A stretch of DNA of 63,857 bases, counting the filler, from Candidatus Rokuibacteriota bacterium (GTDB lineage: Bacteria; JAUVQV01; DATDCY01), in NCBI GenBank assembly GCA_031406795.1. It is 5 parts of 5 records of this genome, joined end to end, with 100 filler letters (N's around TTAATTAATTAA, not from the genome) between each part and the next. Parts side by side here need not be neighbours in the genome. Positions count along the whole stretch, not along the records: positions 1 to 27,687 come from JANOHV010000174.1; 4 more parts are not named here. The stretch is one strand, 5' to 3'. The notes under the pieces are model-generated. The model was given only the letters and a program-made list of their open reading frames with translations. It was not told the DNA's origin and made no database searches. Position 1 is the first letter of the stretch; the number at the start of each line of letters is the position of its first letter. Shown here piece by piece: positions 457-47,448 of the stretch. The translations under genes and the position numbers were made by a program.

Positions 457-1197
457 CTAGCCGATCTTCTCCCCCTCGATCAGCAGGTAGGTGTCGTGCT
501 TGATGAAGCGCGTTGAGGTGATTTGCAGCTCGGGGTTGTTCAGGAGATGCCGGTGCGTGTCGCGATCGAAGCGCGCGCCGTAGACTTTTTCCACGAAGGG
601 TGCGAAGAGATCCTGCCGCCGTCTCAACGCCGGGTCCTGCGAGTACACCATCTCGAGTAACCGGAACTTGCCCCCGGGCTTGAGCACCCGCCCGAACTGG
701 GCGATCGCCTGCTCCTGGAGACCGGCCGGGAGGACGCAGCAGAGGAAGGTCGCCACAACCCAGTCGTACCGGTCGGACTCGACCAAGGTCATGTCGCAGG
801 CGTCGTCCTGAAGCAGCCGCACGGAACACGACGCCTCACGGCAGCGCCGCGAAGCGTGTCGCAGCATCGCGGGGCTGAAATCCAGCGCGGTGAGTGCGAC
901 ATCTGACGGGTAGTACTTGAGGTTTCTCCCCGTGCCGACCCCTGCCTCCAGCACCTCGCCGTGCAGATCGCCTACGAGCTGTGGACGCCACTTTCGGTAC
1001 TGGAGTTCCCAAGGGGTATCCAGCAGGTCGTAGAACCAGGCCGTGACACCGTAGCGATCCCGGTTCCGGCGATTCTCCTCGCGCAAGTCCTCGACGGATT
1101 TCTGTCCAATTCCCACCTTCCAATAATAACGCTCTTGTCGGATATCGCCACTAGTTCGTGAAATGAAACGATCCGCTAGTCGGCTTTCGGTTGCCAC
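457..1197 (-). CDS. Class I SAM-dependent methyltransferase
   Basis: VLEAGVGTGRNL motif I, LDFSPAML, RVLKPGG; true start may lie downstream of 1197. Confidence 0.85.
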   Translation of the reverse strand: MATESRLADRFISRTSGDIRQERYYWKVGIGQKSVEDLREENRRNRDRYGVTAWFYDLLDTPWELQYRKWRPQLVGDLHGEVLEAGVGTGRNLKYYPSDVALTALDFSPAMLRHASRRCREASCSVRLLQDDACDMTLVESDRYDWVVATFLCCVLPAGLQEQAIAQFGRVLKPGGKFRLLEMVYSQDPALRRRQDLFAPFVEKVYGARFDRDTHRHLLNNPELQITSTRFIKHDTYLLIEGEKIG

Positions 1198-2090
1198 TGC
1201 TTCGCGAAGGCAATGAAAGTCGCCAGTATCGCGGTTTCCTTCTTGAGACGATGGCGAACGATGAAGAACTTGCGGCCCGCGGTCAGACCGTTGACGCGAA
1301 GCCGGACGAGCCAGCCCGCAGAGATTTCGTTGCCCACCGTGAGTGCCGAGAAATAGCCGATGCCGTGCCCCGACATCACGACCTGCTTGATCGCCTCCAC
1401 GGACCCGAGTTCCATGAAGTGCGGTAAAGAGATGCCCCGCCGGTTCAAGTGGGCTTCCATGGTCGCCCGCGTGGCCGAGCCCGGCTCACGGATCACCATT
1501 CGCTCCTTCAAGAATCGCTCCGGCGCGATGGAACGGGCCCGGGCAAGCGGGTGTCCCGGGGCGCAGCAGAAGAAGAGCTCGTCCTCCAGGAAGGGCTCCG
1601 AGACGATGTCCCGGGAGGTCCCGGCGGTCCCGATGAACCCCAGATCGAATTCGTTGGTCAGAAGCCGCTCTTCAATGTGTGCCGAGTTTTCAACGACGAG
1701 AGTGACCTTGACCCGGGGATATGCCACCGAGAATTCGGCGAGCCGCGAAGGCAGAAAATAGGTCCCAAGTGAGGTGCTGGCACCGACCCTGACGATGCCG
1801 GTGCCATTCTCCCGATATGCGGCGAAGTCCTGAGTCATCTCCCGCAGCCACCCCTCCATGCGCGTCGCATAGGCTTGCAACAGGTGTCCGGCATCCGTGA
1901 TGTGCACTTTCTTCCCGATGAGTTCGAATGGTGGTGTGCCCAGTACGATGCCCAGTTCCCGGATCTGCACCGAGACGGCGGACTGGGTGAGATGCAATTC
2001 GGCGGCGGCGGCGGTGAAGCTGCGATGGCGGGCAACGGCGCGGAAGATTCGCAGGTGGTGGAGCGTCAGACGCGCGAGCTCATCTTCCAT
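1176..2090 (-). CDS. LysR family transcriptional regulator, divergent from the selenoprotein cluster
   Basis: N-terminal HTH SFTAAAAELHLTQSAVSVQIREL; substrate domain REPGSATR, GSVEAIKQVV (CysL/CbbR-like). Confidence 0.93.
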   Translation of the reverse strand: MEDELARLTLHHLRIFRAVARHRSFTAAAAELHLTQSAVSVQIRELGIVLGTPPFELIGKKVHITDAGHLLQAYATRMEGWLREMTQDFAAYRENGTGIVRVGASTSLGTYFLPSRLAEFSVAYPRVKVTLVVENSAHIEERLLTNEFDLGFIGTAGTSRDIVSEPFLEDELFFCCAPGHPLARARSIAPERFLKERMVIREPGSATRATMEAHLNRRGISLPHFMELGSVEAIKQVVMSGHGIGYFSALTVGNEISAGWLVRLRVNGLTAGRKFFIVRHRLKKETAILATFIAFAKQWQPKAD

Positions 2091-2102
2091 GAGAACTACT
2101 TA

Positions 2103-2123
2103 TCATAATCATGACTATTATGA
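2103..2123. promoter_or_regulatory. Candidate LysR operator (inverted repeat)
   Basis: TCATAAT-catgact-ATTATGA in the AT-rich divergent intergenic region. Confidence 0.55.
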
Positions 2124-2163
2124 AATATCATCTTCTTCACGACAAGTCTAACTTGATGGCGAG

Positions 2164-2937
2164 ATGACATTGCCGCTGCTTGTCTTCCTGATCGGGGCCG
2201 GCGGCGGAGCCCTCTCCGGACTCCTCGGGATCGGCGGCGGAATCGTCACGGCGCCTTTGCTCCTGTATCTGCCGCGGATCTTCGGACTCGAGCCGCTCTC
2301 GATGCATGCCGTCGGCGGCCTGACCATCTCCCAGGCGCTCTTCGCGAGCCTCTTCGGCGGCGTCGCGCACTGGCGGACGGGGAACGTTGACCGGCGCCTC
2401 GCCGGGGTGATGAGCGGCGTCATCTTCGTGGCGGCGCTCGTGGGCGGGGCGGGATCGAAATTCTTCAGCCACCGGTCTCTCCTCGGTCTCTTCCTGCTGC
2501 TCTCGCTGGCGGCCGCCGTCCTGATCCTGCTGCCGCAGCCGGAGGGAGACGGGACGGGGTACCGACCCGGCGCTTTTTCGACACCGGGTGCCATTGGCAC
2601 TGCCCTGGGCATCGGCGTTCTCAGCGGACTCGTCGGACAGGGCGGGTCGTTCATTCTGATCCCGATGGCAGTGACCCTCCTCAGGGTGCCGCTGCGGATC
2701 GCGATGGGCAGCAACATGGTCATCATCTTCTTCGCGTCGCTCGCGGGATTTCTCGGCAAGGCGGTTACTGGACAGGTCCCCCCGCTGCTCGCTGCCGTGT
2801 TGCTGGCGGGCATCCTGCCGGGGTCGCTGGCCGGTGTCGCGCTCGCGCGTCGCATGCCGACGGGCGCCCTCCGGGTGGCTCTCGGCGTCCTGATAATCGC
2901 AGCGTGCGCCCGGATGGCGCTCGATCTGTTCGCCTAG
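2164..2937 (+). CDS. Sulfite exporter TauE/SafE family protein
   Basis: Duplicated SGLLGIGGG / SGLVGQGG motifs, about 8 TM helices. Confidence 0.9.
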   Translation: MTLPLLVFLIGAGGGALSGLLGIGGGIVTAPLLLYLPRIFGLEPLSMHAVGGLTISQALFASLFGGVAHWRTGNVDRRLAGVMSGVIFVAALVGGAGSKFFSHRSLLGLFLLLSLAAAVLILLPQPEGDGTGYRPGAFSTPGAIGTALGIGVLSGLVGQGGSFILIPMAVTLLRVPLRIAMGSNMVIIFFASLAGFLGKAVTGQVPPLLAAVLLAGILPGSLAGVALARRMPTGALRVALGVLIIAACARMALDLFA

Positions 2938-2976
2938 CCACGAAGTCACACCATCACCACGAAAGGGGAGGACGCC

Positions 2977-3240
2977 ATGAAGAAGCCGATCATCACGCTC
3001 TACAGCAACGAACCCATGGGAAAGAGGTGACGGCAGAACCTCGCGGTCGCCTCCCGTGCGGAGGCCGAACTGGGTGCTGAAATCGTGATCGTGAAGAAGA
3101 CCTCGCCGGAGTACCACCCGGGAACGGACCCACCCTGTCCCACGGTGGTCGTCAACGGGGAAGTTCTCGTGAAGGATGGCACGGTGACCTTCGAGCAGCT
3201 CCGGGATGCGATCCAGCAGAACCTGGAATATTGCATATGA
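2977..3240 (+). CDS. Selenoprotein, NEPxGxxU-motif thioredoxin-like small protein (87 aa, Sec at codon 18)
   Basis: RBS AAGGGGAGG, ATG 2977; MKKPIITLYSNEPMGKR-U(TGA 3028-3030)-RQNLAVASRAEAELGAEIVIVKKTS...PPCPTVVVNGEVLVKDG...; frame stays open to TGA 3238, which overlaps the next ATG (ATGA); hairpin follows the UGA. Confidence 0.85.
3049..3065 (+). promoter_or_regulatory. Bacterial SECIS-like hairpin
   Basis: GCCTCC-cgtgc-GGAGGC; loop 24 nt after UGA, with GU at loop positions 2-3. Confidence 0.65.
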
Positions 3241-4025
3241 GCTGGTCGCTGCTGGCTACCCTGCTGGGGCTCGGTCTCGGTGGCGGGTTCCTCTCCGGCC
3301 TCCTCGGTCTCGGCGGGGCGATCTTCATGATCCCGCTGCTGCTCTATGTCCCGCCGCTGCTCGGCGTGGGCCAATTCGACATGAAGATCGTCGCCGCGAT
3401 CAGCATGGTGCAGGTGCTGTCAGCCTCCCTGACCGGTGTGCTGGTGCACAACAAGAACAAGTTCGTCAGCAAACAGCTCCTGATCGTCATGGGCGTCATG
3501 AACGCCGTTGGAAACCTCGCCGGTTCCCTTTACTCGAAGAACACGCGGAGTTCGCTGCTCCTTGCGATCTTCGCCACCCTGGCGGTCATCGCCGCGGTCG
3601 TGATGTTCATCCCCCGTCGCGACCAGGGCGGGGACATCGCTCCGGATGACGTGAAATTCAACAAGCCGCTCGCGGCGGCGGTCAGTCTGGCCATCGGGTG
3701 CTTCGGCGGCATGGTCGGCGCGCCGGGGGCCTTCCTTTATATCCCGGTGATGATCTATCTGCTGGGCATCCCGACACGGATCGTGATCGGCAGCACCCTC
3801 GGCATCGTTCTGCTGGGGGCGATCACGGGCACCATCGGCAAGATGGTCACCGGCCAGATCATCTGGCCGTACGCGATCGCGCTGGTGATCGGCACCATCC
3901 CCGGCGCGCAGATCGGCAGCCGGATGAGCAAGAAGGTCAACACGAAGCACCTGCGGCTGGCGATTGCGGTCATCATCGCGGTCACCGGAGTGCGGATGTG
4001 GTACCAGATCGTGACCGGGCGTTGA
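3237..4025 (+). CDS. Sulfite exporter TauE/SafE family protein
   Basis: SGLLGLGG and GGMVGAPG repeats; ATG 3237 coupled to the upstream stop. Confidence 0.9.
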   Translation: MSWSLLATLLGLGLGGGFLSGLLGLGGAIFMIPLLLYVPPLLGVGQFDMKIVAAISMVQVLSASLTGVLVHNKNKFVSKQLLIVMGVMNAVGNLAGSLYSKNTRSSLLLAIFATLAVIAAVVMFIPRRDQGGDIAPDDVKFNKPLAAAVSLAIGCFGGMVGAPGAFLYIPVMIYLLGIPTRIVIGSTLGIVLLGAITGTIGKMVTGQIIWPYAIALVIGTIPGAQIGSRMSKKVNTKHLRLAIAVIIAVTGVRMWYQIVTGR

Positions 4026-4103
4026 GTGCGCATCGGGTTTCCCGAACGCGCCGACTCGTAACGGCAGCCGACAGGTTGTCGGTCCATTGAGAAGGGTCAG
4101 GCT

Positions 4104-5291
4104 ATGACGAAGATTGTGGTGTTGGGTGGGTCTTTTGGCGGGTTGACCGCCGCACTCGAGCTCAAACGGCTGCTCGGGGCGCGCGCGGAGGTAACCGTCA
4201 TCAGCGATGACGACCGCTTCGTGTTTCTTCCCTCGTTGCCGTGGTTGATCATGGGGTGGCGCAGACCGGACGACATCACGCTTTCGGCGAGCGAAATCCT
4301 CCGGCCGAAGGGGATCGCATTTATTCACGAGGCGGCGCGGCTGGTGGACCCCGAGAACCACCGGGTGGAAACCGCGACCAGGCACGTGCCGTACGACTAC
4401 CTGGTGGTCGCTACCGGATCGCACCAGGCTTTCGACGATATCCCCGGCCTCGGCCCCGAAACGGGCTTCACGGACAGCACTTTTACCCTCGATCAGGCCA
4501 TGCGAACCGCGCAGACCTGGAAGCGCATCCTGGAAAAGCCCGGGCCGCTGGTGCTCGGCGCCTCGCAGATGGTCAGCTGCTTCGGCCCTTCGTACGAGTT
4601 GGCCTTCGAGATGGATGCCGAGCTCAGACGGCTCAAAATGCGGCATGCGGTGCCGATCGTCTACCTCACCTCCGAGCCGTACCTCGGGCACATGGGTGTC
4701 GGCGGCATCGGCAAGTCGCGACGCTTCATCGAGGACGAGTTTGCCGAGCGCGACATCAAGCCGCTGGTGAACCAGGCCATCGAGGAGATCGCCCCGGGAG
4801 AGATCCGGCTCAAGGACGGCACGAAGATCCCCTTCGCGCTGGCCATGATCGCCCCGCCGTTCAAAGGCATTGCGGCGGTCGCGTCACTGGGGAATCCACG
4901 GGGTTTCATTCCCGTGGACAGGAACTACCGGCACGCCCGGTACAAGAACGTGTTTGCGGTCGGCGTGGCGATCGCGATCGCGCCGGCGGAGCCGACGCCG
5001 GTGCCGACCGGGGTTCCGAAGACCGGCTTCATGACGGTGAAGATGGCGAAAGTGGCGGCAGCGACGCTCGCGGCGGAGATCACGGGGGCGCCTCCCCCCG
5101 CGGCTGAGCACCTGGGCGTGATCTGCCTCATGGACATGGGGCCCACGGCCGCAATCATGAAGGCCTACCCGGTCCTCCCGCCGCGGCAGAGTTCCTACCT
5201 GAAGGAGGCGATCTGGGCAAAATGGATGAAGCTCGGATTCGAGAAGTATTTTCTTTGGAAAATGAAGCGCGGCCTGAGCAATCTGCCGTGA
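4104..5291 (+). CDS. sqr: Sulfide:quinone oxidoreductase-like FAD-dependent oxidoreductase
   Basis: GGSFGG Rossmann motif, SCFGPSYE and ICLMDMG catalytic Cys motifs, GVPKTGFM, C-terminal KLGFEKYFLWK. Confidence 0.8.
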   Translation: MTKIVVLGGSFGGLTAALELKRLLGARAEVTVISDDDRFVFLPSLPWLIMGWRRPDDITLSASEILRPKGIAFIHEAARLVDPENHRVETATRHVPYDYLVVATGSHQAFDDIPGLGPETGFTDSTFTLDQAMRTAQTWKRILEKPGPLVLGASQMVSCFGPSYELAFEMDAELRRLKMRHAVPIVYLTSEPYLGHMGVGGIGKSRRFIEDEFAERDIKPLVNQAIEEIAPGEIRLKDGTKIPFALAMIAPPFKGIAAVASLGNPRGFIPVDRNYRHARYKNVFAVGVAIAIAPAEPTPVPTGVPKTGFMTVKMAKVAAATLAAEITGAPPPAAEHLGVICLMDMGPTAAIMKAYPVLPPRQSSYLKEAIWAKWMKLGFEKYFLWKMKRGLSNLP

Positions 5292-5304
5292 AGACAACCT
5301 GGGC

Positions 5305-5985
5305 ATGATAGCCATCGTCGCGACGTACGCGGTCATCGCGGCGTTCTATCTGCGGCTTGGCCTCCATGCGTTGCGTTGGCTGCAGGCAGCCGTGCGCTTC
5401 AAGGCCGGTCCGAGCAGTGGCGCGGCGACGACGGTGCGTGCGGCAGCCGACACGGCTCTGGACATCATGATGCTTCGCAGGCTGCTCATCGTGAATCCTG
5501 CCCTCTGGGTCGGCGAGTGGGTGTTTCATGCGTCCCTGTTCCTGATTGTCCTCAGGCATCTTCGCTATTTCTTGGAAGTCGCACCGTTTTGGGTACGCTG
5601 GTCACAGACACCGGGATGGATCGCCGGCTTTCTGCTGCCGGCGGCTCTCTTGTATATCTTCGCCGTCCGCCTGCTGAGCGGGCAGGAGAAATTCTCATCA
5701 AGAGCAAATCTTCTGATGCTGCTGAATGTTCTCGCCATCGGCGCCACGGGACTCTTGATGAGCACCCGATACCGAGTTGACCTGGTGGCGGTCAAGCTTT
5801 TCGCGCTGGGTATCGTCACGCTTAACCCGTCACCTCCGCCGCAGAACGCCATATTCATGGTCCACCTGGCACTTGTTCTCGCACTGATCCTGTATATTCC
5901 CGGCCATGTCTTCACCGCGCCGCTCGTCATGCTGGATGCGCGTCGTCGCGATCGTGAACGCCAGGAGGTGATGCATGACCGATAA
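5305..5985 (+). CDS. NarI/DsrM-like membrane b-type cytochrome subunit
   Basis: About 5-6 TM helices, WVFHASL..LRHLRYF and MVHL...GH His pattern. Confidence 0.7.
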   Translation: MIAIVATYAVIAAFYLRLGLHALRWLQAAVRFKAGPSSGAATTVRAAADTALDIMMLRRLLIVNPALWVGEWVFHASLFLIVLRHLRYFLEVAPFWVRWSQTPGWIAGFLLPAALLYIFAVRLLSGQEKFSSRANLLMLLNVLAIGATGLLMSTRYRVDLVAVKLFALGIVTLNPSPPPQNAIFMVHLALVLALILYIPGHVFTAPLVMLDARRRDRERQEVMHDR

Positions 5986-7180
5986 GCGGTCCTTCGGCGA
6001 GGAACTTTCGCCCCGGCAGTTGATCGAGATCGACGCTTGCACGCAGTGCGGCGAGTGCCTGAAACATTGCCCGGTGCAGATGGTCACCGGGAACCCGGCC
6101 ATTGCTCCACCGGAGAAGATCCGGCTTTTCCGGGAGTTCCTGCGCGCAACGGACGGGATCAAGGCCCGCCTTCTCGGCCCCCAGGCGGTGGACCCGAAGC
6201 TGCTTGAAGACTTCACCAAGGCCGTCTACGAGTGCACGACCTGCGGCGCCTGCGGCGAGAGTTGCCCCGTGGGGATTTTCACGCAGCGACTCTGGCCGAC
6301 GCTGCGCAAGGAATTGGTTCGACGCGGACTCGGCCCCCTCGGGCCGCAGCCGAAGATGCCCGGGGCGATCGAACGCACGGGCAACCCTTATGACAAGCCG
6401 GCCGCGGAACGCTATTCCCCCTGGCTTCCGGAGCAGGTCCACGTTGCCGAGCGCGCCGAAATCGCCTACTACGCCGGGTGCACCGGCGCTTACGAGTCCA
6501 TGCCGATGGTGCGGGGCGACGTCCTCGTGCTGCACGCCACCGGCATTCCTTTCACGATGCTGCCGCCCGAAGAGGAAGTCTGCTGCGGGTTCCCGCTGTT
6601 CATCACCGGGCAGCACGAACTACTTGCCGGACTGGTGAAGCGACTCGTCGAAGGCTATCAGGCGCGCGGCGTGAAGACGCTGGTGTGCTCGTGTCCCTGC
6701 TGCGTGAACATCATGTCGCGTGACTGGCCGGCACTCTACGGCAAAGAGTTGCCATTCAAGATCCGGCACATCACCCAATTCGTCGTCGACGCCTTCAACC
6801 AGGGGAAACTTCGCGTGCCGCGTGCACTGCATGAACGGGTCATCTACCACGACCCCTGCTACCTGAGCCGCGGTGTCGGGGTGATCGAGGAGCCCCGGGA
6901 GACGCTGCGGCGCATCCCGGGACTCACGGTGCTGGAGTTCGATTGCCACGGCCTCAACTCCCGATGCTGCGGCTCCGGCGGCGCCGCGCGCAAGGTGTTT
7001 CACGAAAACGCGATCGCAATGGGCCGATTGACGATCGACGAAGCGGTGGCGAAGGGAGCCGACCGGCTGATCCTGAGTTGCCCCGCCTGCTATGCCAAGG
7101 TCAACGAGGCGATGCAGGGGTACGAAAAGCAGATCCGGATCACGGATATCATGGAGCTGCTGGCCTCCACGCTGCAGTGA
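5975..7180 (+). CDS. (Fe-S)-binding oxidoreductase, HdrD/GlpC-like with CCG domains
   Basis: Two CxxCxxCxxxCP ferredoxin motifs; YAGC, VCCG, SCPCC, YHDPCYL, RCCGSGG, SCPAC. Confidence 0.9.
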   Translation: MTDKRSFGEELSPRQLIEIDACTQCGECLKHCPVQMVTGNPAIAPPEKIRLFREFLRATDGIKARLLGPQAVDPKLLEDFTKAVYECTTCGACGESCPVGIFTQRLWPTLRKELVRRGLGPLGPQPKMPGAIERTGNPYDKPAAERYSPWLPEQVHVAERAEIAYYAGCTGAYESMPMVRGDVLVLHATGIPFTMLPPEEEVCCGFPLFITGQHELLAGLVKRLVEGYQARGVKTLVCSCPCCVNIMSRDWPALYGKELPFKIRHITQFVVDAFNQGKLRVPRALHERVIYHDPCYLSRGVGVIEEPRETLRRIPGLTVLEFDCHGLNSRCCGSGGAARKVFHENAIAMGRLTIDEAVAKGADRLILSCPACYAKVNEAMQGYEKQIRITDIMELLASTLQ

Positions 7181-7349
7181 AGGAACCGCATGACATGCCG
7201 ATCCCCCGCGGAGGATGTGAGCCAGATTCTTTCCCGGCATCAAACTCCCACCACCAGGGAGGACGACCATGGCCAAAGCGAAGCAGTGGAATGGAGATGG
7301 AAATGAAGATGATGTCTCGGGAGACCGTCTCCCTGCAAGGGGACAAACC

Positions 7350-9089
7350 ATGAGTCGGCGTAACATTCTCGCACGAAAAACTTGCGAATGGACTGCATTC
7401 TGCCTCGTCTTCCTCATTCCGGCGCTGTTCTGGACGCCCGAGGCTTTTTCGGCAGCCGGCGCGCCCACGATGGAAGATGTCCGCGTCGAGGCCGTCCGCG
7501 GTGGCTACCAACTCATCGATCTCGGGGAATTGCGCGGTATGCTGAAGCGCGGGCCGGGGCGAATCCTCCTCGTCGACACGCGGCAGGACTGGGAGTACCG
7601 CACCGGTCACATCCCGGGCTCGATCAACTTCTCCTTTGAGCCGACGCGGTGGTCGCGACTGAAGAACCGTTGGGCCTTGAAAGCGGCGCTTGGCGCGGAC
7701 AAATCGCGCCCGCTCGTCTTTTACTGAGCCGGCCTCACATGAGTCCGTAGCGACTCGGCGGCCCGGGTGGCCGTACGGCTTGGATACAAGGAAGTCTATC
7801 GGTATCCCACAGGTTTTCCCGAGTGGCAGGCAAACGGCCTGCCGGTGGGGAATGCCCCGGCGGGTGAGGTGCATGCCTCTCCGAAATCCCAAAGTGGCCG
7901 GGGTCTGATCTGGACGCTGCTCGGCGTATTTCTCGGCGGGATGGCCTTGAATCTCACCCCGTGTGTCTATCCGATCATCCCGATCACCGTCTCCTATTTC
8001 GGCGGTCGCAGCGGCGGGAAAGGGAGTGTTCTTGCGCATGGCCTCTGCTACGTGGGCGGTTTGGCGCTCACGAACTCGCTGCTCGGTGTTGCCGCCGCAC
8101 TCACCGGTGGGCTCATGGGCGCCGCGTTGCAGAACCCAGCCGTACTGGCGGCCGTCGCGGTCGTTCTGCTCGCCTTCGCCGCGAGTCTGTTCGGCTTCTG
8201 GGAACTGCGCCTGCCATCGGGCCTGACGCGTTCCGCGTCGCGTTCCTTCGCCGGCTTTTCCGGCAGCGTCTTCATGGGCCTGACGATGGGAGTCGTGGCG
8301 GCGCCATGCATCGGGCCCTTCGTGCTCGGACTCCTGACGTGGGTGGCGAGCAGTGGCAGCGCCCTTCTCGGATTCACGGTCTTCTTCACGCTGAGTCTCG
8401 GCCTCGGACTTCCCCTGCTCTTTCTGGCGCTCTTCAGCGGCCGGCTGGAGCGACTCCCACGGGCGGGGGAATGGATGGTCTGGGTGCGCCGCCTCATGGG
8501 TTGGGTCCTGGTCGGGATGGCCCTGCACTTTGTGCGCCCGGTCTTTCCTCCCGACGTGGGGCCAATCCTGCTGGCCGCCGTCGCTCTGATCGCCGGCATC
8601 GACCTGGGGTGGAGAACGACGATTGCCGGGGGATCGCGCGGTTTCGCCCTCTTTCGAACCGTGGTTGGCGTCCTCGGCGTCCTTCTCGCCCTGACGCTCG
8701 CCGGTGGCCGGCTCCTCCGCGGACCGGGGATGCCATGGCAGCCTTATTCGGACCGACTCGTCGCGACCGCGCTCCAGGAGGGCAAACCGGTGATCATCGA
8801 CTTCTCGGCGGCCTGGTGCACACCCTGCCGCAGGCTGGAGGACGAAACCTTCGATGACAAACGGGTGGTGGCATTCGCGACGGCACACTTTACCGTGGTC
8901 AAGGTCGACCTCACGAGCAGCGGCAATCTTCTCAATGAACACCTGCTCCGGAAGTACTCGATCAAGGGGGTGCCGACGATTGTCTTCCTGGGAACCGACG
9001 GCCGCGAGTTGCCGGCATTGCGCCTGGTCGACTATCTCCCGGCCGATGGCTTTTTGGCCCGCATGCAGGCGGCGCGCGGGAACCAGTAA
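7350..9089 (+). CDS. tsoB: Double-Sec rhodanese / DsbD-beta / thioredoxin fusion selenoprotein
   Basis: ORFs 7269-7727 and 7767-9089 are in one frame, joined by FY-U(7725)-AGLT-U(7740)-VRSDSAARVAVRLGYKEVYRYPTGFPEWQANGLP, the rhodanese YCxGxxCxRS loop; then LTPCVYP, APCIGP (DsbD-beta) and WCTPC. Alternative start 7269. Symbol is recalled from NCBIfam naming and unverified. Confidence 0.88.
7740..7774 (+). promoter_or_regulatory. Two tandem SECIS-like hairpins
   Basis: GAGTC-cgtagc-GACTC (7741-7756, loop 18 nt after first UGA) and GCGGCC-cgggt-GGCCGT (7758-7774, loop 21 nt after second UGA). Confidence 0.6.
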
Positions 9090-9111
9090 CACGGACAGAG
9101 GAGGGAATCCG

Positions 9112-9432
9112 ATGCTCAAGATTCGTGTCTTTCTGAATGAACCGCAAGGCAAGCCCTGAAAGCATTTCATGGAGATGCTGCCCAGGCTGGGCGGCAAGTA
9201 CGCGTTGCAAATCGAAGCGACGTCGAAACCGAAAGCGGAGTACCACACCGACTCCTATTACGCCCTGGACCTGCCGGTTGCCCCGGCCGTCATGGTGGAG
9301 CAGGAGATTGTCGTTGAGGGGAGGGACATCGACGAGGATGTATTTGAAGCGGCGGTCCGCCGCCATCTCGGATTGCCTGAGGAGGGAGGAGGCGGAAAGA
9401 AGGGGCTGTTGGACCGGATACTGGGGAAATAG
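9112..9432 (+). CDS. tsoC: NEPxGxxU-motif selenoprotein (106 aa, Sec at codon 16)
   Basis: RBS GAGGAGG, ATG 9112; MLKIRVFLNEPQGKP-U(TGA 9157-9159)-KHFMEMLPRLGGKY..., in frame with ORF 9169-9432; paralogous to 2977-3240. Symbol recalled from NCBIfam naming and unverified. Confidence 0.88.
9176..9196 (+). promoter_or_regulatory. Bacterial SECIS-like hairpin
   Basis: TGCTGCCC-aggct-GGGCGGCA; loop 24 nt after UGA. Confidence 0.65.
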
Positions 9433-9466: not shown

Positions 9467-10303
9467 CTAGACGGGAAGACGGTCGAGCCGGGCGCCCAGG
9501 CCGCGCAGGTGTCCCTTCTCCTCCTCGATCAGCCGATGCAGGGTGGCGCGCAGCGCAGCGAGATCATCGCGGCGGGCCATCTTGAGATAAAGATCGAGAG
9601 AATTCGCCTCGATCTGCATCGCAAGGTCGAAGATGTCGCGGACCGAACGTCCCGGCGTCGCAGCCCAGGCCACCGCCTCCTCGATCCGGACGGCTCCTTC
9701 CATCCAGTCCGCTGCGGTGTCCCCGTGCGCCTCCCGGCCGGCAGCGGGTCCTCCCGGCAGAGACACTTGCGCTCCGAGGAGCAGCGCCCGGTGCCGCTCC
9801 TCGGCCTGCACCAGGCTGTCGAGAAGGGCGCGGGCCTCCGCACCGGGCGCGAGACCGCGCATCCGCTCGTAGAAGACCTGCGAACCCTCCTCGAGGGCGA
9901 GCGCAAAAGCGAGCGCTTGCACCGGAGTCGGTCCCTCCCCGAGCAGGAAGAGCCCGTGGTCGTATTCTCCCTGCGCCAGCGGGCCATTCCAGGCGGCGAT
10001 ACCCCCCTCGAGGCTCCTGACCTCGGGGAAGCCCTGGCCGATGAGTATCGAGGCAGCCGACCGGCTGCGCCTTCCGGCGCCGCAGTAGGTGACGATGCGC
10101 GCCGCGTGGTCGATTTCCCCCGCGCGGTCGGTCAGCTGGCTCAGGGGGATGTGCCGGGCGCCGGGCAGGTGTTCCCGGGCATACTCCGCCGCCTCGCGAA
10201 CGTCGAGAAGCATGACATCGCCGACGCCGGCGCGATCAAGCTCCGGTCGCAGCTCCTCGGCGGAGACGGTGGGGATTCTCTGCAGGAACTCCAGGAAGCT
10301 CAC
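9467..10303 (-). CDS. Rhodanese + rubrerythrin/ferritin-like fusion protein
   Basis: LLDVRE..EY...HLPGA, YCGAGRRS; C-terminal E..FY / EERH / EKGH diiron motifs. Confidence 0.85.
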   Translation of the reverse strand: MSFLEFLQRIPTVSAEELRPELDRAGVGDVMLLDVREAAEYAREHLPGARHIPLSQLTDRAGEIDHAARIVTYCGAGRRSRSAASILIGQGFPEVRSLEGGIAAWNGPLAQGEYDHGLFLLGEGPTPVQALAFALALEEGSQVFYERMRGLAPGAEARALLDSLVQAEERHRALLLGAQVSLPGGPAAGREAHGDTAADWMEGAVRIEEAVAWAATPGRSVRDIFDLAMQIEANSLDLYLKMARRDDLAALRATLHRLIEEEKGHLRGLGARLDRLPV

Positions 10304-10319: not shown

Positions 10320-11117
10320 TCAGCGCAGCAGTTTTGCCGTGAAGGGCAGCGCCAGGATGTGCGGCAGCATCAGATGACCCGGCTCCCGGTAGTTGGCGAG
10401 CCCGATCGTCATCGCCTCGTGCCCCTTCAGCGGCTGCGGGCGGTAGGTGCGGAAGAGGCGGTCCCAGAGCGAGAGATTGAAGCCGTAGTTGCTGTTCATC
10501 TCTTTGATGATGACGGAATGATGCACCCGGTGCATGTCCGGCGTGACCAGAACGCTCCTCATCGGTCCGTCGAGGGCGAGGGGGAGCGCAAAATTGCTGT
10601 GGTTGAACATCGCCATGGCGTTGAGGATCACCTCGAACGCAACTACCGCCGCCGGGGAGGCGCCGAGGACCGCGATGAAGCACAGTTTGACGACCATGGA
10701 GAGGAGGATTTCCAGCGGGTGAAATCGCGCGCCGGTCGTGACGTCGATGTCCAGATCGGCGTGGTGCATCATGTGCAGCCTCCAGAGGAGGGGGCGGAGG
10801 TGGAAGACCACGTGCTGCACGTAGATGACGAGGTCGAGGGCGATCACGGCGAGCACGGTCTCGAGGAGGGTGGGGAGGGGGACGTTATTGAAGAGCCCCC
10901 ACCCCCGCGCCTCGACCGCGGCGGCGAAGGCAACTGCGGTGACCGGAAAGGCGAGGCGGACAAGTGCCGCGCCCAGGAAGGTGACGGAGATATTGCTCAG
11001 CCACCGCGCCGCCTTCGGAGTGCGAAGCCGCCGCCTCGGCGCCATCGCTTCGAGCAGCGCCATCAGGGCGAAGACCCCGGCGTACGCACCAAGGCGAATG
11101 ACAATTTCCCTCTCCAT
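10320..11117 (-). CDS. Sterol desaturase / fatty acid hydroxylase family protein
   Basis: His boxes QHVVFH, LHMMHH, FNH, MHRVHH; NYGFNLSLWDRLF. Confidence 0.9.
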   Translation of the reverse strand: MEREIVIRLGAYAGVFALMALLEAMAPRRRLRTPKAARWLSNISVTFLGAALVRLAFPVTAVAFAAAVEARGWGLFNNVPLPTLLETVLAVIALDLVIYVQHVVFHLRPLLWRLHMMHHADLDIDVTTGARFHPLEILLSMVVKLCFIAVLGASPAAVVAFEVILNAMAMFNHSNFALPLALDGPMRSVLVTPDMHRVHHSVIIKEMNSNYGFNLSLWDRLFRTYRPQPLKGHEAMTIGLANYREPGHLMLPHILALPFTAKLLR

Positions 11118-29754: not shown

Positions 29755-31935
29755 GTGATTTCTTCCTCCCGTCGATTTCGTGCCGGTTGCGCACTGCTGC
29801 TTCTCGCTCTTGCAGCCGCCCCCGCGCTCGTTCGCGCGCAGGGCGCGGCGGTCGTGCCGGTCGTCTCCTATCCGCTCGACATGACGCTTGTCGAGCGGGC
29901 CGATCTCCCCGTCGAGGGGTTCGTGTCCGGTGCGGGTGTCGAGGAGATCGACATCGTCGTCAACGACGGACGGCCCGTGATCGTCCCCGTGCGCGACGGC
30001 CTCTTCGCGGAGGAGGTCAGCCTCGATGACGGGCTCAACACGCTGCGGATCGGGAGCGTGGTGCGCACGGTCTGGCTCGCTTCCGCTTCGGCGCAGCCGC
30101 CGGCGGGCTACCGGCCGGTCTATGGTCACTTCGGTCTCAACGACAGCTGTCTGGAGTGCCACAAGACCGCAGGCGCGGGAGTTTTGGTGCTCGCCGGCGA
30201 GCGCGAGGAGATCTGCGGCTGGTGCCACGGCGACCTCACGCGCGGCCGCGGCGGTGTCGCCTGGGCATCCGTGCACGCGCCGGTGGGCGCCGGCAAGTGC
30301 CTCACCTGTCACTCCCCCCATCTCTCGGTGAAAAAGGGGCTTCCCGCGGAGAACGCGCCGACGTGCGTCGGCTGCCACGCCGCCGTTACCGACCGGCTGA
30401 AGACCGACCGTTTCGTGCACGGCCCGATGAACCTCGGGGATTGCCGCCTCTGCCACGCGGTTCACTCCTCCGCGGAGCCGAAACTGCTCGTCCGGCCGGC
30501 GACCGCCCTGTGCACCGACTGCCACAGCGACGCGCTCCCCCCCGCGGGGACTCCCGCCGCCCTGAAGCCACACCCGATGATCCCCGAAGGTCAGTGCGGC
30601 CGCTGCCACGAGCCGCACTCCTCGGCGAACCCGCGCATGCTCCGCCAGCCCGCGGGGCGGCTCTGCCAGGGGTGCCACGAGGGGAAGACCCGCAGCTTTC
30701 ACGAAGCCAAGGGCTTCTCGATCTACATCTGCGCCAAGTGCCACGACCTGCACCGCCCGACGCAGCCACACCTGATCATGGAGGCCAGCCGCTCGCTCTG
30801 CACCGAGTGTCACGACTTTCGCGGGGAGGCCGTGTTCACGCACTCCTTCGTCGCCGAGGGCAAGTGCTTCCTCTGCCACAGTTTCCACGAGGCGCCGCTC
30901 TCGAGCGACGTCGCGTCGCTCTGCCTCGGCTGCCACCGCGACAACCCGCGTCTCCAGGAAGCGCACCGCGGGGTCTCCATCGAAAAGTCGCGCTGCACGA
31001 GCTGCCACCTGCCGCACCAAGCCCGCCGCGGCAAGCTGCTGCGCGCCGAGGAGCACACGCCGTTCAAGGCGCGCACCTGCGAGGTGTGCCACCGGGACCG
31101 CGCGGCGAAGATCGGGCCGATCCTGGCTCCCCTGTGCCTCGATTGCCACCGCGACAGGCAGGCTCCCGCAGCGTCCGCGGCGGTGACGGTCCACCCGCCC
31201 TTTCGCGACAGCGATTGCAGCAGCTGCCACCGGAGCCACAATGCGGAGGCGCCCAACCTGCTGCGGGAGTCCGAGGGTGCGCTCTGTCTCGGCTGCCATC
31301 GCAAGATGCGCAAGACGATGCTGATCGCGCCGGTTTCGGCGCACTCGGCGGTTCGCGACGGGCGTTGCGGCGTTTGCCACGATCCCCACTACTCGGCGGA
31401 CCCGGCACTGCTGCGCCAGCCGCAGAGCAACCTGTGCCCCTCCTGTCACGCGACGCTCGTAAAAGCCCCCGGCGGCGGTCCGTGGGCCGTCGGGCACAAA
31501 CCGGTGGACGAGAACAAGTGCCGCCTCTGTCACCGCAGCCACACCGCGCCCAACCGACGGCTGCTCAAGTCACCGCAGGCGCAGTCCTGCCGCCCCTGCC
31601 ACGCGGGATTCTTCGCCGCGATCGAAGCTGACGACATGCGTTCGCTCCACAAGCCGGTCAAGGAGGGAGCGTGCGGCGCGTGCCACACACTGCACGGGGG
31701 GACGCTCGCCAAGCTCCTCAAGGACGGTGTGCGCGGGCCGGTCTGCGGCGGCTGTCACCCGAACCCGCCCGGAGCGCATCACCAGTTCTCCGCCGATCAA
31801 CTCAAGGTCGCGGGGGATCCTTCGCAGATTGAGGCCAGCGGCTGTCTGCTCTGTCACCTGCCGCACGCTTCGGCGCAGCGCACCCTGCTGCTGGCGACCG
31901 CGTCAGCGGTCTGTAAGGGCTGCCACAACTCCTGA
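29755..31935 (+). CDS. Multiheme cytochrome c (25 CxxCH)
   Basis: Signal peptide, Ig-like N-terminal region, 25 CxxCH counted in paired H.P...C..CH.PH / LC..CH repeats. Confidence 0.93.
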   Translation: MISSSRRFRAGCALLLLALAAAPALVRAQGAAVVPVVSYPLDMTLVERADLPVEGFVSGAGVEEIDIVVNDGRPVIVPVRDGLFAEEVSLDDGLNTLRIGSVVRTVWLASASAQPPAGYRPVYGHFGLNDSCLECHKTAGAGVLVLAGEREEICGWCHGDLTRGRGGVAWASVHAPVGAGKCLTCHSPHLSVKKGLPAENAPTCVGCHAAVTDRLKTDRFVHGPMNLGDCRLCHAVHSSAEPKLLVRPATALCTDCHSDALPPAGTPAALKPHPMIPEGQCGRCHEPHSSANPRMLRQPAGRLCQGCHEGKTRSFHEAKGFSIYICAKCHDLHRPTQPHLIMEASRSLCTECHDFRGEAVFTHSFVAEGKCFLCHSFHEAPLSSDVASLCLGCHRDNPRLQEAHRGVSIEKSRCTSCHLPHQARRGKLLRAEEHTPFKARTCEVCHRDRAAKIGPILAPLCLDCHRDRQAPAASAAVTVHPPFRDSDCSSCHRSHNAEAPNLLRESEGALCLGCHRKMRKTMLIAPVSAHSAVRDGRCGVCHDPHYSADPALLRQPQSNLCPSCHATLVKAPGGGPWAVGHKPVDENKCRLCHRSHTAPNRRLLKSPQAQSCRPCHAGFFAAIEADDMRSLHKPVKEGACGACHTLHGGTLAKLLKDGVRGPVCGGCHPNPPGAHHQFSADQLKVAGDPSQIEASGCLLCHLPHASAQRTLLLATASAVCKGCHNS

Positions 31936-31938
31936 CCC

Positions 31939-32113
31939 CCGGGAGGAGGACAACGCCGCAGGTGGGCCGTTTTCAGCGGACTGAGGACGGGCCGGCTGCT
32001 CAAAAGGGTCCAGATGCCAGGCGGACGACGATCCGGCGACTGAGGCGTACGAGTGGTACGCCGCAGGGAGCCGGGAGGAGGACAACGCCGCAGGTGGGCC
32101 GTTTTCAGCGGCC
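31939..32113 (+). repeat. Structured MITE-like repeat: partial copy (31939-31979) plus full copy (31994-32113)
   Basis: 41-bp direct repeat CCGGGAGGAGGACAACGCCGCAGGTGGGCCGTTTTCAGCGG at 31939 and 32071; imperfect terminal inverted repeats. Confidence 0.82.
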
Positions 32114-34135
32114 GGACGGTAGATAGGACTGGGTGATGTGGCAGCCGCCGAGGCACTTGCCGCCGGCGCCGATCTTCTTGAATTCGATCTGGAGGCAGGG
32201 GACCCCGTTGCAGTCGAGCACGCGGCGGATCAGCCGCGGCGACTCGGTTGCGTGCGGGACGTGGCAGTTGCGACAGGTGACGCCGGGTTGTACGCGCGTC
32301 CCGAGTTCCGAGCGCGACACCCGGTCGCGCAGATGCAATGCGTGCAGATTCCTCGCTCCGTCGGCGAACCCGGTGTCGCTCCCGCGGTCCGGGTCGGTGA
32401 GCGCACTCTCGTCGTGGCACTCCAGGCACAGCCCGTAGCGTTCGGCGGCGAAGCGGACGTACTGTTCGATCGGATAGGGACGGACGAGCAGGTGCTCGTT
32501 CGCCGCCCCGTGCGCCGGGTGGCAGGCGCCGCAGTCGCCCTCGCGCACCGGATCGTGCACGGTCTGCTGCGCGAAGCGCGATTGCGGGTGGCAGGTGAAG
32601 CAGAGCGCCGGGCGCACGGCGCGCAGCAGCGCCTGCTCCCGCGCCGCGTGGGCCCGGTGACAGCCGAGGCAGCCTTTGGCGGCGAGTACCCCGTGCGGTT
32701 GCTTCTCCCGGCCGATCTCGTCGTGGCAGCCCCGGCAGACCTCGACGATGTTCCCGGCAACCCGCCAGCCCCCGGCCGGCGCGCCGTGGCAGGAACCGCA
32801 GTCGCCCTCCGCATACGGCGGATGGCGCTGCTCGTAGACGAAGCCCGCGGTGTCGCCGCCGTGGGGGTCATGGCATTCCGTGCAGCGACTGCCCTCGAGG
32901 GCGTAGCCCCCGTGCGCCGCGAGCGAGGCTTCCGACCCGGTGTTGTGGCAGCGGGCGCAGATGCGATCTTCGCGGCCGAGGAGGAGCAGCCGGTTCTCCG
33001 GACCGTGGTCGAGATGGCAGAAGCTGCAGGCCCCGGCGCGGACGGGGGCGTGGAGGCGGGCCTTGGCGAAGCGCTTCACCGCCTTGGCGTGGCAGGTGAC
33101 GCAGCTCTTGTTGATGCTGCGCTCGAGCGCGCTCTGCTCGGGCAGGGCGGCCGTCGCCCGCGGCGGGGCGACCGAAGGCGACACTGCCGGGGGGGCGGCC
33201 GGATCGAGGGCGCCGGTGAACGCATAGCGCTGCGGTGCGTGGCAGCCCGACAGACACTGCCCGCCGCTGTCCGTGCGCCGGAAATCCAGCTTCAGGCAGG
33301 GGACCCCGCCGCAGTCGAGTTCGCGCCGCACCAGACGCGGTCCCTCGGAGGAGTGCACCTCGTGGCAGCTGCGGCAGGAGAGGCTCTGCTGCGGTTGGCC
33401 GCCGCCGGCCGGGCCGGAGGTGTCGACGTGGAGCGCGTGCAGGTTGTTCTCGCCGGAGCGAAACAGAGTGCCCTCGGCTCCCGCGGTAAAGAAATTCCGG
33501 CGGTCATGACAGCCGAGGCAGAGCGCGACATCGCTCTCGCGGGCGACCCAGCGGCCGGGAGTGTACCGCGCTTTGAGCAGCGAGGGCCGGCGCGAGGCAT
33601 GCGGGTCGTGGCAGGCCAGGCACTCGCCCCGCTTGACCGGGGCATGAGCGATCCGGCGGGTAAACTCCTCGCCGGCATGGCAGCCCAGACACAATTCGCG
33701 GGCCGGCTTGAGCAGCTTGCCGTCGAAGCGGTGGCAGGGGTCGCAGCGGCCGAAGGCGAGCGGCCGGTGGCGCCGCGGCAGCAGCAGGTGTTCCTCGCTC
33801 GAGCGGTGCGGGTCGTGACAGGAGATGCAGAGGACCTTCGGGCCGCGAACACCGTGGTGGGCTTTCAGGAATGCCGGGTCAGCGCTCGCATGGCACTCTT
33901 CGCAGAGCGCGTTGCCCGCCGCGGCGAGGACGAGGCGCCCCTCGTCGCCGTGCTCGACGTGACAGGCGGTGCAATCGTCCTCGTCGAACGGCGGGTGTAC
34001 GCTGCGGGAGCCGGCGCCAATGTCCCCTTTTTCGTGGCACTCGCTGCACGGCTCGGCGGCGAGCGGGGCCGGCGCGCCAAGCGACCCGCCGAGAAGCAGC
34101 GCGAGGAGCGCAACGGCGGCCCGCCGTGCGCTCAC
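32105..34135 (-). CDS. Multiheme cytochrome c (20 CxxCH + 2 CxxxCH), internally duplicated
   Basis: Signal peptide; two modules each ending LHALH..CRxCH..PRL.RR.LDCxGVPCL..GGxCLxGCH. Confidence 0.93.
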   Translation of the reverse strand: MSARRAAVALLALLLGGSLGAPAPLAAEPCSECHEKGDIGAGSRSVHPPFDEDDCTACHVEHGDEGRLVLAAAGNALCEECHASADPAFLKAHHGVRGPKVLCISCHDPHRSSEEHLLLPRRHRPLAFGRCDPCHRFDGKLLKPARELCLGCHAGEEFTRRIAHAPVKRGECLACHDPHASRRPSLLKARYTPGRWVARESDVALCLGCHDRRNFFTAGAEGTLFRSGENNLHALHVDTSGPAGGGQPQQSLSCRSCHEVHSSEGPRLVRRELDCGGVPCLKLDFRRTDSGGQCLSGCHAPQRYAFTGALDPAAPPAVSPSVAPPRATAALPEQSALERSINKSCVTCHAKAVKRFAKARLHAPVRAGACSFCHLDHGPENRLLLLGREDRICARCHNTGSEASLAAHGGYALEGSRCTECHDPHGGDTAGFVYEQRHPPYAEGDCGSCHGAPAGGWRVAGNIVEVCRGCHDEIGREKQPHGVLAAKGCLGCHRAHAAREQALLRAVRPALCFTCHPQSRFAQQTVHDPVREGDCGACHPAHGAANEHLLVRPYPIEQYVRFAAERYGLCLECHDESALTDPDRGSDTGFADGARNLHALHLRDRVSRSELGTRVQPGVTCRNCHVPHATESPRLIRRVLDCNGVPCLQIEFKKIGAGGKCLGGCHITQSYLPSGR

Positions 34136-43852: not shown

Positions 43853-44350
43853 TCAAACCCAATCCCGCCGATCCGGCCACGTCCCCGACCCGGACCACCG
43901 GTACTTCGCCGCTTCCGCGACAATCCCCGACCTCACCGGGTTGCCGAAGACATATCGTGTCACGTCTACAAGCCGCTCCCCGTGCCTGGGCGCATGGTCG
44001 TGAAATCCGCGCTGCCAGAGCCGGCGGTGGGGATCGATGCGGCGCGCGCGAGGCGTCAGGCTCCCCTTGAAAACACGGACATAACCGGTCAGATCGGCAT
44101 CCTCCAGCAGGAAATGCACGTGGTCCGGCATGACACACCAGGCGTGCAGCGTGGTCTGGCGGGCGTCGGCGAGCCCGACAATTATTGCGGCGGCATCGTC
44201 TGCCAGGGTTGGATGCAGGGAGAACCAGGGGTGACGGTTGTCCGTGCAGATCGTGACGAGAAACACCCGTCCCGGGGCATGGTACGAGGCAGAATCAAGG
44301 CGGATTCGTTTGCGGTGAGGGGTGACGGATGTCGTCGAGCGCCTGGTCAT
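43853..44350 (-). mobile_element. REP-associated tyrosine transposase (RAYT, IS200-like Y1 HUH)
   Basis: VFLVTICT, WCVMPDHVHFLL (HUH), WQRGFHDH, RYVFGNPVRSG, YRWS; flanked by GTAG REPs. Confidence 0.92.
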
Positions 44351-47096: not shown

Positions 47097-47448
47097 GCGC
47101 GTGAAGATCTGCAACACGCCCGAATGCCGCAGGATGCGCGAGCTGCTCTCGGACTTCATCGACCACTCGCTGCACTGGCGCACGGCCCGCAGCCTGGAGA
47201 CGCATCTGGCGGCCTGCCCGCCCTGCCGCTGCTACGTCGCGACCGTCGAGCGGACCATCGTGCTCTACCGCGAGCGCCCCGTTGTGGACGTGCCGGTCGC
47301 CGTGCGCGGACACCTGCGCGCGGTGCTGCGCGAGCGGCACGAGAGCGCGCCGAAGCAGCCCGCGGGGCGCTGCTGCGCCGGGAAGGCGGCCGTCAAGCGC
47401 GTCGTCCCGGCAGCGGCGCCCAAGCCGCGCGTCGCCGGGAAGGCATGA
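47086..47448 (+). CDS. Anti-sigma factor, zf-HC2 domain, soluble
   Basis: C...LSDFID...ETHLAACPPC (HxxxCxxC). Confidence 0.85.
   Translation: MTTKRVKICNTPECRRMRELLSDFIDHSLHWRTARSLETHLAACPPCRCYVATVERTIVLYRERPVVDVPVAVRGHLRAVLRERHESAPKQPAGRCCAGKAAVKRVVPAAAPKPRVAGKA

Follow-up and report, generated by a model that had tools for sequence, protein, structure and literature searches.

A cluster at positions 1176-9432 of a 63,857-nucleotide (nt) stretch of DNA from a Candidatus Rokuibacteriota bacterium (hereafter the window; parts of five records of assembly GCA_031406795.1, joined end to end) combines the selenoproteins TsoB and TsoC with a sulfide:quinone oxidoreductase (SQR) homologue, a cytochrome b and iron-sulfur protein pair resembling HdrE and HdrD (the HdrED-like pair), two TauE permeases, and a further small selenoprotein that we call NEP1. 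TsoB and TsoC are already catalogued selenoproteins, curated in NCBIfam. What is new here is their combination with SQR, the HdrED-like pair, and a TauE-NEP1-TauE unit, as well as the recognition of NEP1 as a separate family with selenocysteine (Sec) and Cys forms. Comparison with homologues supports three selenoprotein genes and four Sec codons in the cluster. We propose that the cluster is a LysR-controlled composite operon around the TsoB-TsoC pair whose products may act together as a relay across the membrane, a joint reading for which we judge the balance to be about even. The first-pass annotation of this DNA had put forward a similar interpretation, which our results support in part; its relay model is a reasonable one that we likewise infer.

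Open reading frame (ORF) lists and family scans place nine co-oriented genes at 2164-9432 with a divergent LysR gene opposite them, in agreement with the closely spaced order first described. On the plus strand, a TauE/SafE (TSUP) permease (2164-2937; PF01925, E 1.2e-38; eight hydrophobic segments) is followed by NEP1 (2977-3240), encoding 87 amino acids (aa) with the motif NEPMGKRU, and by a second TauE/SafE (TSUP) permease (3231-4025; PF01925, E 2e-43). Next on this strand are a type I SQR homologue, which is a flavoprotein (4104-5291), an HdrE/DsrM/NarI-like membrane cytochrome b (5305-5985), and an HdrD/DsrK-like CCG iron-sulfur protein (5975-7180). TsoB, a fusion of rhodanese, DsbD, and thioredoxin domains (7350, or alternatively 7269, to 9089), and the 106-aa TsoC (9112-9432) complete the series. 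Intergenic gaps in the cluster measure 13-169 nt and two gene pairs overlap, the UGA stop codon of NEP1 overlapping the start of the following TauE gene. Five terminator-like sites were found, versus 6.7 expected from shuffles; the tight spacing and the chance level of such sites are compatible with a single transcript. Contigs of an RNA library (run X5) cover 2965-3213 with five differences and 8943-9250 with three, a weak hint of transcription, which such contigs do not prove.

The regulator (1176-2090, minus strand) has HTH_1 and LysR_substrate domains. Its top match among 54 NCBIfam family matches is the selenium-metabolism-associated LysR model NF040786, at 204.7 bits and thus under the cut-off of 250. 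The intergenic region between LysR and TauE contains the operator-like palindrome that had been noted earlier, and it proved to be perfect: TCATAAT-N7-ATTATGA at 2103-2123, with 7-nt arms that are 100% complementary, is a candidate LysR box. On the minus strand it coincides in part with two promoter-like sites, which are consensus matches only.

Four selenocysteine codons and their hairpins

In-frame TGA codons lie at 3028-3030 in NEP1 (Sec18), at 7725-7727 and 7740-7742 in TsoB (U126 and U131, spaced U-x4-U), and at 9157-9159 in TsoC (Sec16), all on the plus strand. The claim that these encode Sec stands up well to comparison, since UGA is retained in orthologues and Cys appears in homologues; for each of the four codons, Cys or UGA occupies the aligned position. 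TGA is found at the same codons throughout our alignments, which comprise 24 TsoC and 26 TsoB sequences, the window included in each; 22 of the TsoC sequences entered the codon counts, and all 22 carry TGA. The Sec/Cys column of TsoC is unchanged in 32 of 32 aligned rows. A pattern search recovered both TGAs of the U-x4-U motif, with NEPxGxx-TGA alongside, in 29 of 34 loci with a full-length TsoB. Six full-length non-Sec homologues of TsoB could be aligned: in four of them Cys occupies both Sec positions (loops FYCTGQTC, FYCAGPDC, FYCADLAC, and FYCADLSC), one has Cys at neither, and one has a gap. The only NEP1 orthologue, in the metagenome locus L135, retains TGA, and Cys pairs with the NEP1 UGA in six full-length homologues (P0127, P0128, P0137, P0144, P0146, and P0149).

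Independent sequence data agree with these codons. A public run from a freshwater-sediment metagenome holds the entire stretch, contigs of two further samples of the source study have the TsoB and NEP1 UGAs unchanged, and a contig from an RNA library of another study spans the NEP1 UGA with no difference listed at the codon. No tRNA-Sec was found in the window, nor were selA, selB, or selD found among the 50 ORFs scanned there. In all five genomes with the same UGA genes, selA and selB score above their cut-offs.

A bacterial selenocysteine insertion sequence (SECIS) is a stem-loop soon after the UGA, with G or U in the apical loop. A candidate follows the TsoC codon at 9180-9192 (plus strand), GCCCA-GGC-UGGGC, which extends to a 9-bp stem in the window. 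The five pairs of the stem GCCCA/UGGGC (loop GGU) are retained in 21-24 of the 24 sequences. Codon use is frozen along the stem: Pro24 is CCC in 22 of 22 sequences, whereas three or four codons encode Pro11 and Pro15; AGG stands for Arg25 in 18 of 18, whereas Arg5 has five codons; and Leu26 is encoded by CTG or TTG only. These frozen synonymous sites indicate selection on the RNA rather than on the protein. Two hairpins with conserved pairing were found in TsoB (7741-7756 and 7758-7774, plus strand), the first helix starting within the second UGA. Their helices are paired in 97.2% of 286 cells, versus 24-60% with slid partners, and two base pairs show compensatory changes (4 cells). The NEP1 candidate, the 6-bp hairpin GCCUCC-CGUGC-GGAGGC (3049-3065, plus strand; z -0.33), lies 21 nt past the UGA; it is present and identical in L135, the one orthologue, and so shows no covariation. 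Thus, of the SECIS-like hairpins first proposed behind every UGA, those of TsoC and TsoB are conserved hairpins with comparative support, whereas for NEP1 a hairpin is present but invariant, and individual folds resemble those of shuffled sequences.

The Tso pair, NEP1, and the redox modules

The first-pass annotation had noted a resemblance to TsoB and TsoC, and the curated models confirm it. TsoB scores 858.7 bits on NF045694 (cut-off 805), with residues 17-575 aligned to model positions 7-571, and TsoC scores 138 bits on NF045708 (cut-off 45) with its NEPQGKPU motif present. TsoA, TsoB, and TsoC were reportedly named from genome context by Haft and Tolstoy in 2025. A 2026 review expands Tso as "three selenoprotein operon" and credits five families to Haft & Tolstoy 2025 (mSystems 10:e0141724): TsoA (LULAxC, NF045695), TsoB (UxxxxU, NF045694), TsoC (NEPxGxxU, NF045708), TsoX, and TsoY (PMC13188914).

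From its N terminus, TsoB consists of a signal-anchor, a rhodanese domain with U126-x4-U131, a DsbD membrane core, and a thioredoxin domain. The rhodanese loop, FYUAGLTUVRS, places U126 and U131 in the UxxxxU pattern. The DsbD model aligns with residues 178-575, and Cys205, Cys320, Cys490, and Cys493 (the last two as C490xxC493) are invariant among the aligned homologues. A crude hydropathy count gives six strong segments; we assign the topology by homology to DsbD. TsoB homologues are numerous, with 7177 at E <= 1e-20 among the candidates scored.

TsoC and NEP1 are both soluble, and neither has a Pfam match. The AlphaFold2 model of TsoC (predicted local distance difference test score 90.1) has elements in the order beta-alpha-beta/beta-beta-alpha, which is the thioredoxin-type order, followed by an amphipathic C-terminal tail. 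In this model the Sec would sit at the start of the first helix, at the position of CxxC in thioredoxins. Fold searches put thioredoxins on top, albeit weakly (E 2e-3, template modeling score ~0.5), and the metalloid chaperone ArsD at rank 7. A TusA-like identity for TsoC and NEP1 was considered and rejected, as the TsoC model shows a thioredoxin-like fold. Many Tso loci also have a second TsoC paralogue, with the motif NDPCGxTU (L001:11766-12044, L009:1992-2270, L018:5969-6238, and L027:2757-3023); its Cys, four residues ahead of the Sec, could be the resolving residue that is missing from the main TsoC.

NEP1 is a sister family of TsoC, with Sec and Cys forms, and has no name among the curated models. 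The two share 30% identity, and NEP1 scores 43.4 bits on the TsoC model NF045708, under the cut-off of 45; the L135 orthologue scores 34 bits. In a tree, NEP1 and seven relatives form a clade apart from 31 TsoC rows, with support of 99/97. A HMMER search of 1.84 billion representatives found 29 NEP1 relatives at E <= 1e-3. The full-length ones read LYVN[DE]PxGxxC, and shorter ones begin right past the Sec position, as miscalled Sec genes would. Because the curated models do not name this family, annotation pipelines will miss the gene. One NEP1 homologue of the Cys form is similar to Thioredoxin_3 clusters of the ESM Atlas (score 0.91), which we regard as a lead only.

The gene context of NEP1 repeatedly includes TauE. 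The window gene sits between two TauE genes, and NEP1-type genes also lie beside TauE in L135 and in genome G175. The latter locus (L217:8712-11314; 73% G+C) has an ArsR-rhodanese regulator divergent from a small selenoprotein with the motif NHPPGRRU, which is followed by a TauE permease. This amounts to a minimal "carrier plus permease" unit, and the genome, a distant one, also holds selA and selB. A search with the NEP1 alignment matched 7 of 401 genomes, two of them with NEP1-type genes (G012 and G175); the other five matches were weaker, and those of comparable strength elsewhere were TsoC copies. Among the 14 genomes of the phylum of G004, the sole match was that genome's own TsoC. In G012 (L218), P0149, and P0162, a Cys-form NEP1-like N-terminal domain (LYVNNPMGVRC) is joined to a C-terminal part of ~250 aa that is rich in Cys and of no assigned family, for a total of 334 aa.

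The SQR homologue aligns with Aquifex aeolicus 3hyv over residues 4-390 (E 1.6e-91). This full-length similarity and the retained pair of redox cysteines, in VSCFGP and ICxxD (VICLMD), assign it to type I; a Phe replaces the third Cys, and the protein stops ~35 residues short of the end of the solved chain. On the type III selenoprotein subtype model, NF049943, it reaches only 95.4 bits (cut-off 525). The cytochrome b has at least four hydrophobic segments, and His75, His85, His187, and His201 are invariant in 51 of 51 homologues; its match to DsrM (NF038037; 74.6 bits, cut-off 300) is weak. The CCG protein combines a pair of CCG stretches with a 4Fe-4S dicluster and is soluble, with neither hydrophobic segments nor a signal peptide. 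It matches TfrB at 184.7 bits and DsrK (NF045796) at 84.4 bits (cut-off 400), all below cut-off, and PDB 9ojn at E 1.9e-25. By these comparisons the two proteins look like HdrE/HdrD or DsrM/DsrK and are members of neither curated family.

With the CCG protein as query, 80 metagenome loci (L130-L209) were retrieved at 73-88% identity, and in 76 of them a cytochrome gene adjoins the CCG gene. Around the closest relatives of this pair (e.g., L142:4290-13601, L164, and L179) lies a very conserved cluster in which we read, in order, an MtaA-like methyltransferase, a corrinoid protein, a corrinoid activation enzyme, a 167-aa protein without a family assignment, the cytochrome b, the CCG protein, cysteate synthase, and sulfopyruvate decarboxylase. 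The corrinoid-methyltransferase-type genes upstream were read from translations alone, whereas cysteate synthase and sulfopyruvate decarboxylase, the latter usually next after the former, score above their curated cut-offs. The cluster resembles a pathway for a coenzyme-M-type thiol that includes an HdrDE-like reductase, and its hosts are probably bacteria. The papers listed by a literature search all deal, judging by their titles and abstract openings, with archaea or with metagenome and microbiome surveys. Within the phylum of G001 (401 genomes), 161 genomes have a cytochrome-b match, at <=36% identity; 11 regions from this phylum all have the cytochrome b/CCG pair, and none of the 11 has TauE, SQR, TsoB, or TsoC.

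For TsoB, we took as our comparison set the first 34 of 80 genome loci fetched with the TsoB alignment, these being the loci with a full-length TsoB; counts over 36 loci add the window and L135. TsoC adjoins TsoB in 32 of the 34. TsoA lies directly upstream in 23, was not found in 10, and could not be judged in 1; the TsoA of L001, for example, scores 215 bits (cut-off 170). The window has no LULAxC motif, and 23 TsoA queries searched against its 63.9 kb by tblastn gave nothing better than E 0.19. The TsoA-less state is thus common among Tso loci. An ArsR-rhodanese regulator precedes the Tso genes in 25 of 36 loci; at the window's Tso cluster there is no ArsR-type regulator, and LysR stands in its place. 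A TVP38/DedA-like membrane protein, recognized by reading the sequence and without a family-model match, follows in 14 of the 36.

One metagenome locus, L135, reproduces most of the window arrangement. It carries, in order, LysR (49% identical and in the corresponding position), TauE (80%), NEP1 (78%), TauE (94%), cytochrome b (74%), CCG protein (88%), TsoB (85%), and TsoC (73%). At L135:4860-6448, SQR is replaced by a 119-aa protein that reads as DsrE-like, with no family hit, and a multihaem cytochrome c with five CxxCH motifs, and a TVP38/DedA-like membrane-protein gene is inserted ahead of TsoB (L135:8229-9035). The retention of TauE-NEP1-TauE, cytochrome b-CCG, and TsoBC with other genes between them suggests that these three modules are linked and that the sulfur-oxidising front end has been exchanged. 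Conserved synteny, which the first-pass annotation had named as a test, therefore holds for TsoB-TsoC and extends to the whole cluster only in L135, with SQR replaced.

A proposed relay across the membrane and the alternatives

In rhodaneses, the active-site chalcogen carries sulfane sulfur or selenium. In DsbD, both flanking domains are periplasmic, and electrons pass from the cytoplasm to the membrane cysteines, the thioredoxin domain, and finally the N-terminal domain. With these activities in mind, we read the cluster as a membrane-spanning relay for sulfane sulfur, or possibly selenium, with Sec residues as carriers, and would put this reading at an even chance of being right. If TsoB works as DsbD does, electrons would move from the cytoplasm to its membrane cysteine pair, on to the CxxC thioredoxin domain, and from there to a periplasmic rhodanese, where sulfur or selenium bound to the Sec pair might be reduced or released outside the cytoplasm. 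SQR would deliver sulfide electrons into the quinone pool, and the HdrED-like pair could draw on quinol to return an oxidised carrier in the cytoplasm to its reduced form. This carrier, TsoC/NEP1 or else a small thiol, would in turn supply TsoB. The two TauE permeases, together with NEP1, would carry a sulfur or selenium anion across the membrane, and LysR would set expression of the system.

Several observations weigh against such a relay. With a single Sec each and without a fixed resolving Cys, TsoC and NEP1 cannot serve as ordinary dithiol reductants. The full window arrangement occurs in none of the 34 TsoB genome loci, and none of these has SQR or NEP1-TauE beside TsoB; the weak exceptions are a TauE-like match of 29% identity in L012 and a CCG match of 27% on the opposite strand in L014. 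The layout recurs in only 1 of the 80 loci fetched with the CCG protein, and SQR is not retained there. Cysteate synthase lies beside the CCG gene in 40 of the 47 loci having at least 1.7 kb downstream, which marks the HdrED-like pair as a portable module whose usual partner is different, and the usual neighbours of the pair concern a small sulfonate thiol. Folded singly, the four stretches behind the UGAs do not outperform shuffled sequences (z -0.00 to -0.56). Finally, just as the first-pass annotation had said of Tso function, the part of the review available to us reports no functional test of any Tso protein (PMC13188914).

Some of these observations would also suit a mosaic of independent modules that share one promoter and no common pathway, with SQR detoxifying sulfide, the HdrED-like pair acting on a small-molecule disulfide, TauE exporting sulfite or sulfonate, and TsoBC performing its own task. 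TsoBC without the other modules in all 34 genome loci, the HdrED-like pair with cysteate synthase in most of its loci, and the absence of SQR from L135 all favor this view. We nevertheless consider a mosaic rather unlikely, because L135 keeps TauE-NEP1-TauE, the HdrED-like pair, and TsoBC in one locus despite different intervening genes, because the paralogy of NEP1 and TsoC connects the TauE and Tso modules by descent, and because adjacent genes overlap at their start and stop codons. Slightly less probable still, in our judgment, is a selenium-specific system that takes up selenium oxyanions, reduces or detoxifies them, or else traffics selenide, with TauE serving as channel, reductant coming from SQR and the HdrED-like pair, and the Sec proteins as selenium carriers. 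The regulator's best NCBIfam match (204.7 bits) is to a selenium-metabolism-associated family, three Sec proteins are encoded within one operon, and ArsD turned up in the TsoC fold search. The regulator's score is nevertheless under the cut-off, SQR retains its sulfide-oxidising cysteines, and the scan of 50 window ORFs revealed neither selD nor any other gene of selenium metabolism. The DsrE-like reading in L135 and the ArsR-rhodanese regulators beside Tso loci point instead to sulfane sulfur. It is very improbable that the genes are split or decayed and that their UGAs are genuine stop codons or arose by sequencing error. Gene callers do split most of the TsoB homologues listed at their UGAs, giving products of ~445 aa, and the hairpin energies are unexceptional. 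Yet UGA is present in all orthologues besides the window (25 TsoB, 23 TsoC, and one NEP1) with both sides conserved at full length, and Cys homologues, frozen synonymous sites, and independent assemblies with the same codons are equally at odds with decay.

Returning to the relay, its value lies in what it would say about Tso. The cluster hints at a role for an uncharacterised system: with TsoBC placed beside sulfide oxidation to quinone, quinol-driven disulfide reduction, and anion permeases, a testable statement can be made about the handling of sulfane sulfur or selenium across the membrane. We speculate further, and more doubtfully, that NEP1 founds an uncatalogued group of thioredoxin-fold carriers, with a single selenol or its Cys equivalent, that serve TauE/TSUP permeases, and that the Tso system, given the place of NEP1 in one operon with SQR, the HdrED-like pair, and TsoBC, is a quinone-linked trans-membrane reductase of sulfane sulfur or selenium. 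Were this quinone-linked reading true, it would provide a first functional handle on Tso.

Surroundings of the cluster and likeness to known systems

The window has a G+C content of 65.7% and contains housekeeping genes elsewhere, including RpoD, DusB, LolCDE-like genes, RNase P RNA, and three tRNAs. Convergent with TsoC, family scans identified a rhodanese (YCGAGRRS) fused to a rubrerythrin-like domain (9467-10303, minus strand). We read the rhodanese part as cytoplasmic and its partner as rubrerythrin/ferritin-like, and its membership in the Tso system is uncertain. The next gene (10320-11117, minus strand) encodes a fatty-acid-hydroxylase/OlsE-like membrane protein (96 bits on the OlsE model, cut-off 475). 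A fatty-acid-hydroxylase-like protein lies beside Tso in 7 of 36 loci including the window; its gene is mostly co-oriented with TsoC and is inverted here. Farther along the window are two large multihaem c-type cytochromes, relatives of the DmsE/decahaem family, with eight (29755-31935, plus strand) and five (32105-34135, minus strand) doubled-CXXCH stretches. A REP-associated tyrosine transposase (43853-44350, minus strand; 94.9 bits, cut-off 80) and a membrane protein (47124-48428, plus strand) with weak matches to SO_0444 Cu/Zn efflux (59 bits) and SaoE (40.6 bits), both below cut-off, were also noted.

The closest known relative of the cluster is the Tso operon itself, which has the same adjacent TsoB (U-x4-U) and TsoC (NEPxGxxU) in the same order, above the curated cut-offs. 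The window differs in being without TsoA and the ArsR-type regulator and in adding LysR, TauE-NEP1-TauE, SQR, and the HdrED-like pair. With Escherichia coli DsbD (NF001419), TsoB shares the two-Cys membrane core and the C-terminal CxxC thioredoxin domain, although its score of 234.4 bits is under the cut-off of 330 and a two-Sec rhodanese replaces the N-terminal immunoglobulin-like domain of DsbD. Methanosarcina HdrDE, like the DsrMK of sulfate reducers, is a disulfide reductase linked to quinol or methanophenazine. The window pair shares with them a di-haem-type cytochrome b with four invariant His residues beside a CCG/4Fe-4S protein, the two genes overlapping. Its scores are nonetheless below cut-off (74.6 of 300 for DsrM and 84.4 of 400 for DsrK), and its nearest relatives adjoin coenzyme-M-type biosynthesis genes. 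The SQR homologue resembles the type I enzymes of Aquifex aeolicus (3hyv) and Acidithiobacillus ferrooxidans (3t2y) over ~390 aligned residues (E 1e-87 to 1e-91), including the two redox cysteines; it differs in having Phe for the third Cys and a C-terminal membrane-binding end that is ~35 residues shorter. According to its predicted structure, TsoC would share a fold with the small Thioredoxin_3 proteins and the ArsD metallochaperone; these carry CxxC or several Cys residues, whereas TsoC and NEP1 have a single Sec (GxxU) instead. YeeE and YeeD (TsuA and TsuB) form a thiosulfate uptake pair in which, as in the TauE-NEP1 arrangement, a permease gene lies beside the gene for a small cytoplasmic single-thiol carrier. 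The families are unrelated, however, and the window pairs a TauE/TSUP permease with a thioredoxin fold rather than YeeE with a TusA fold.

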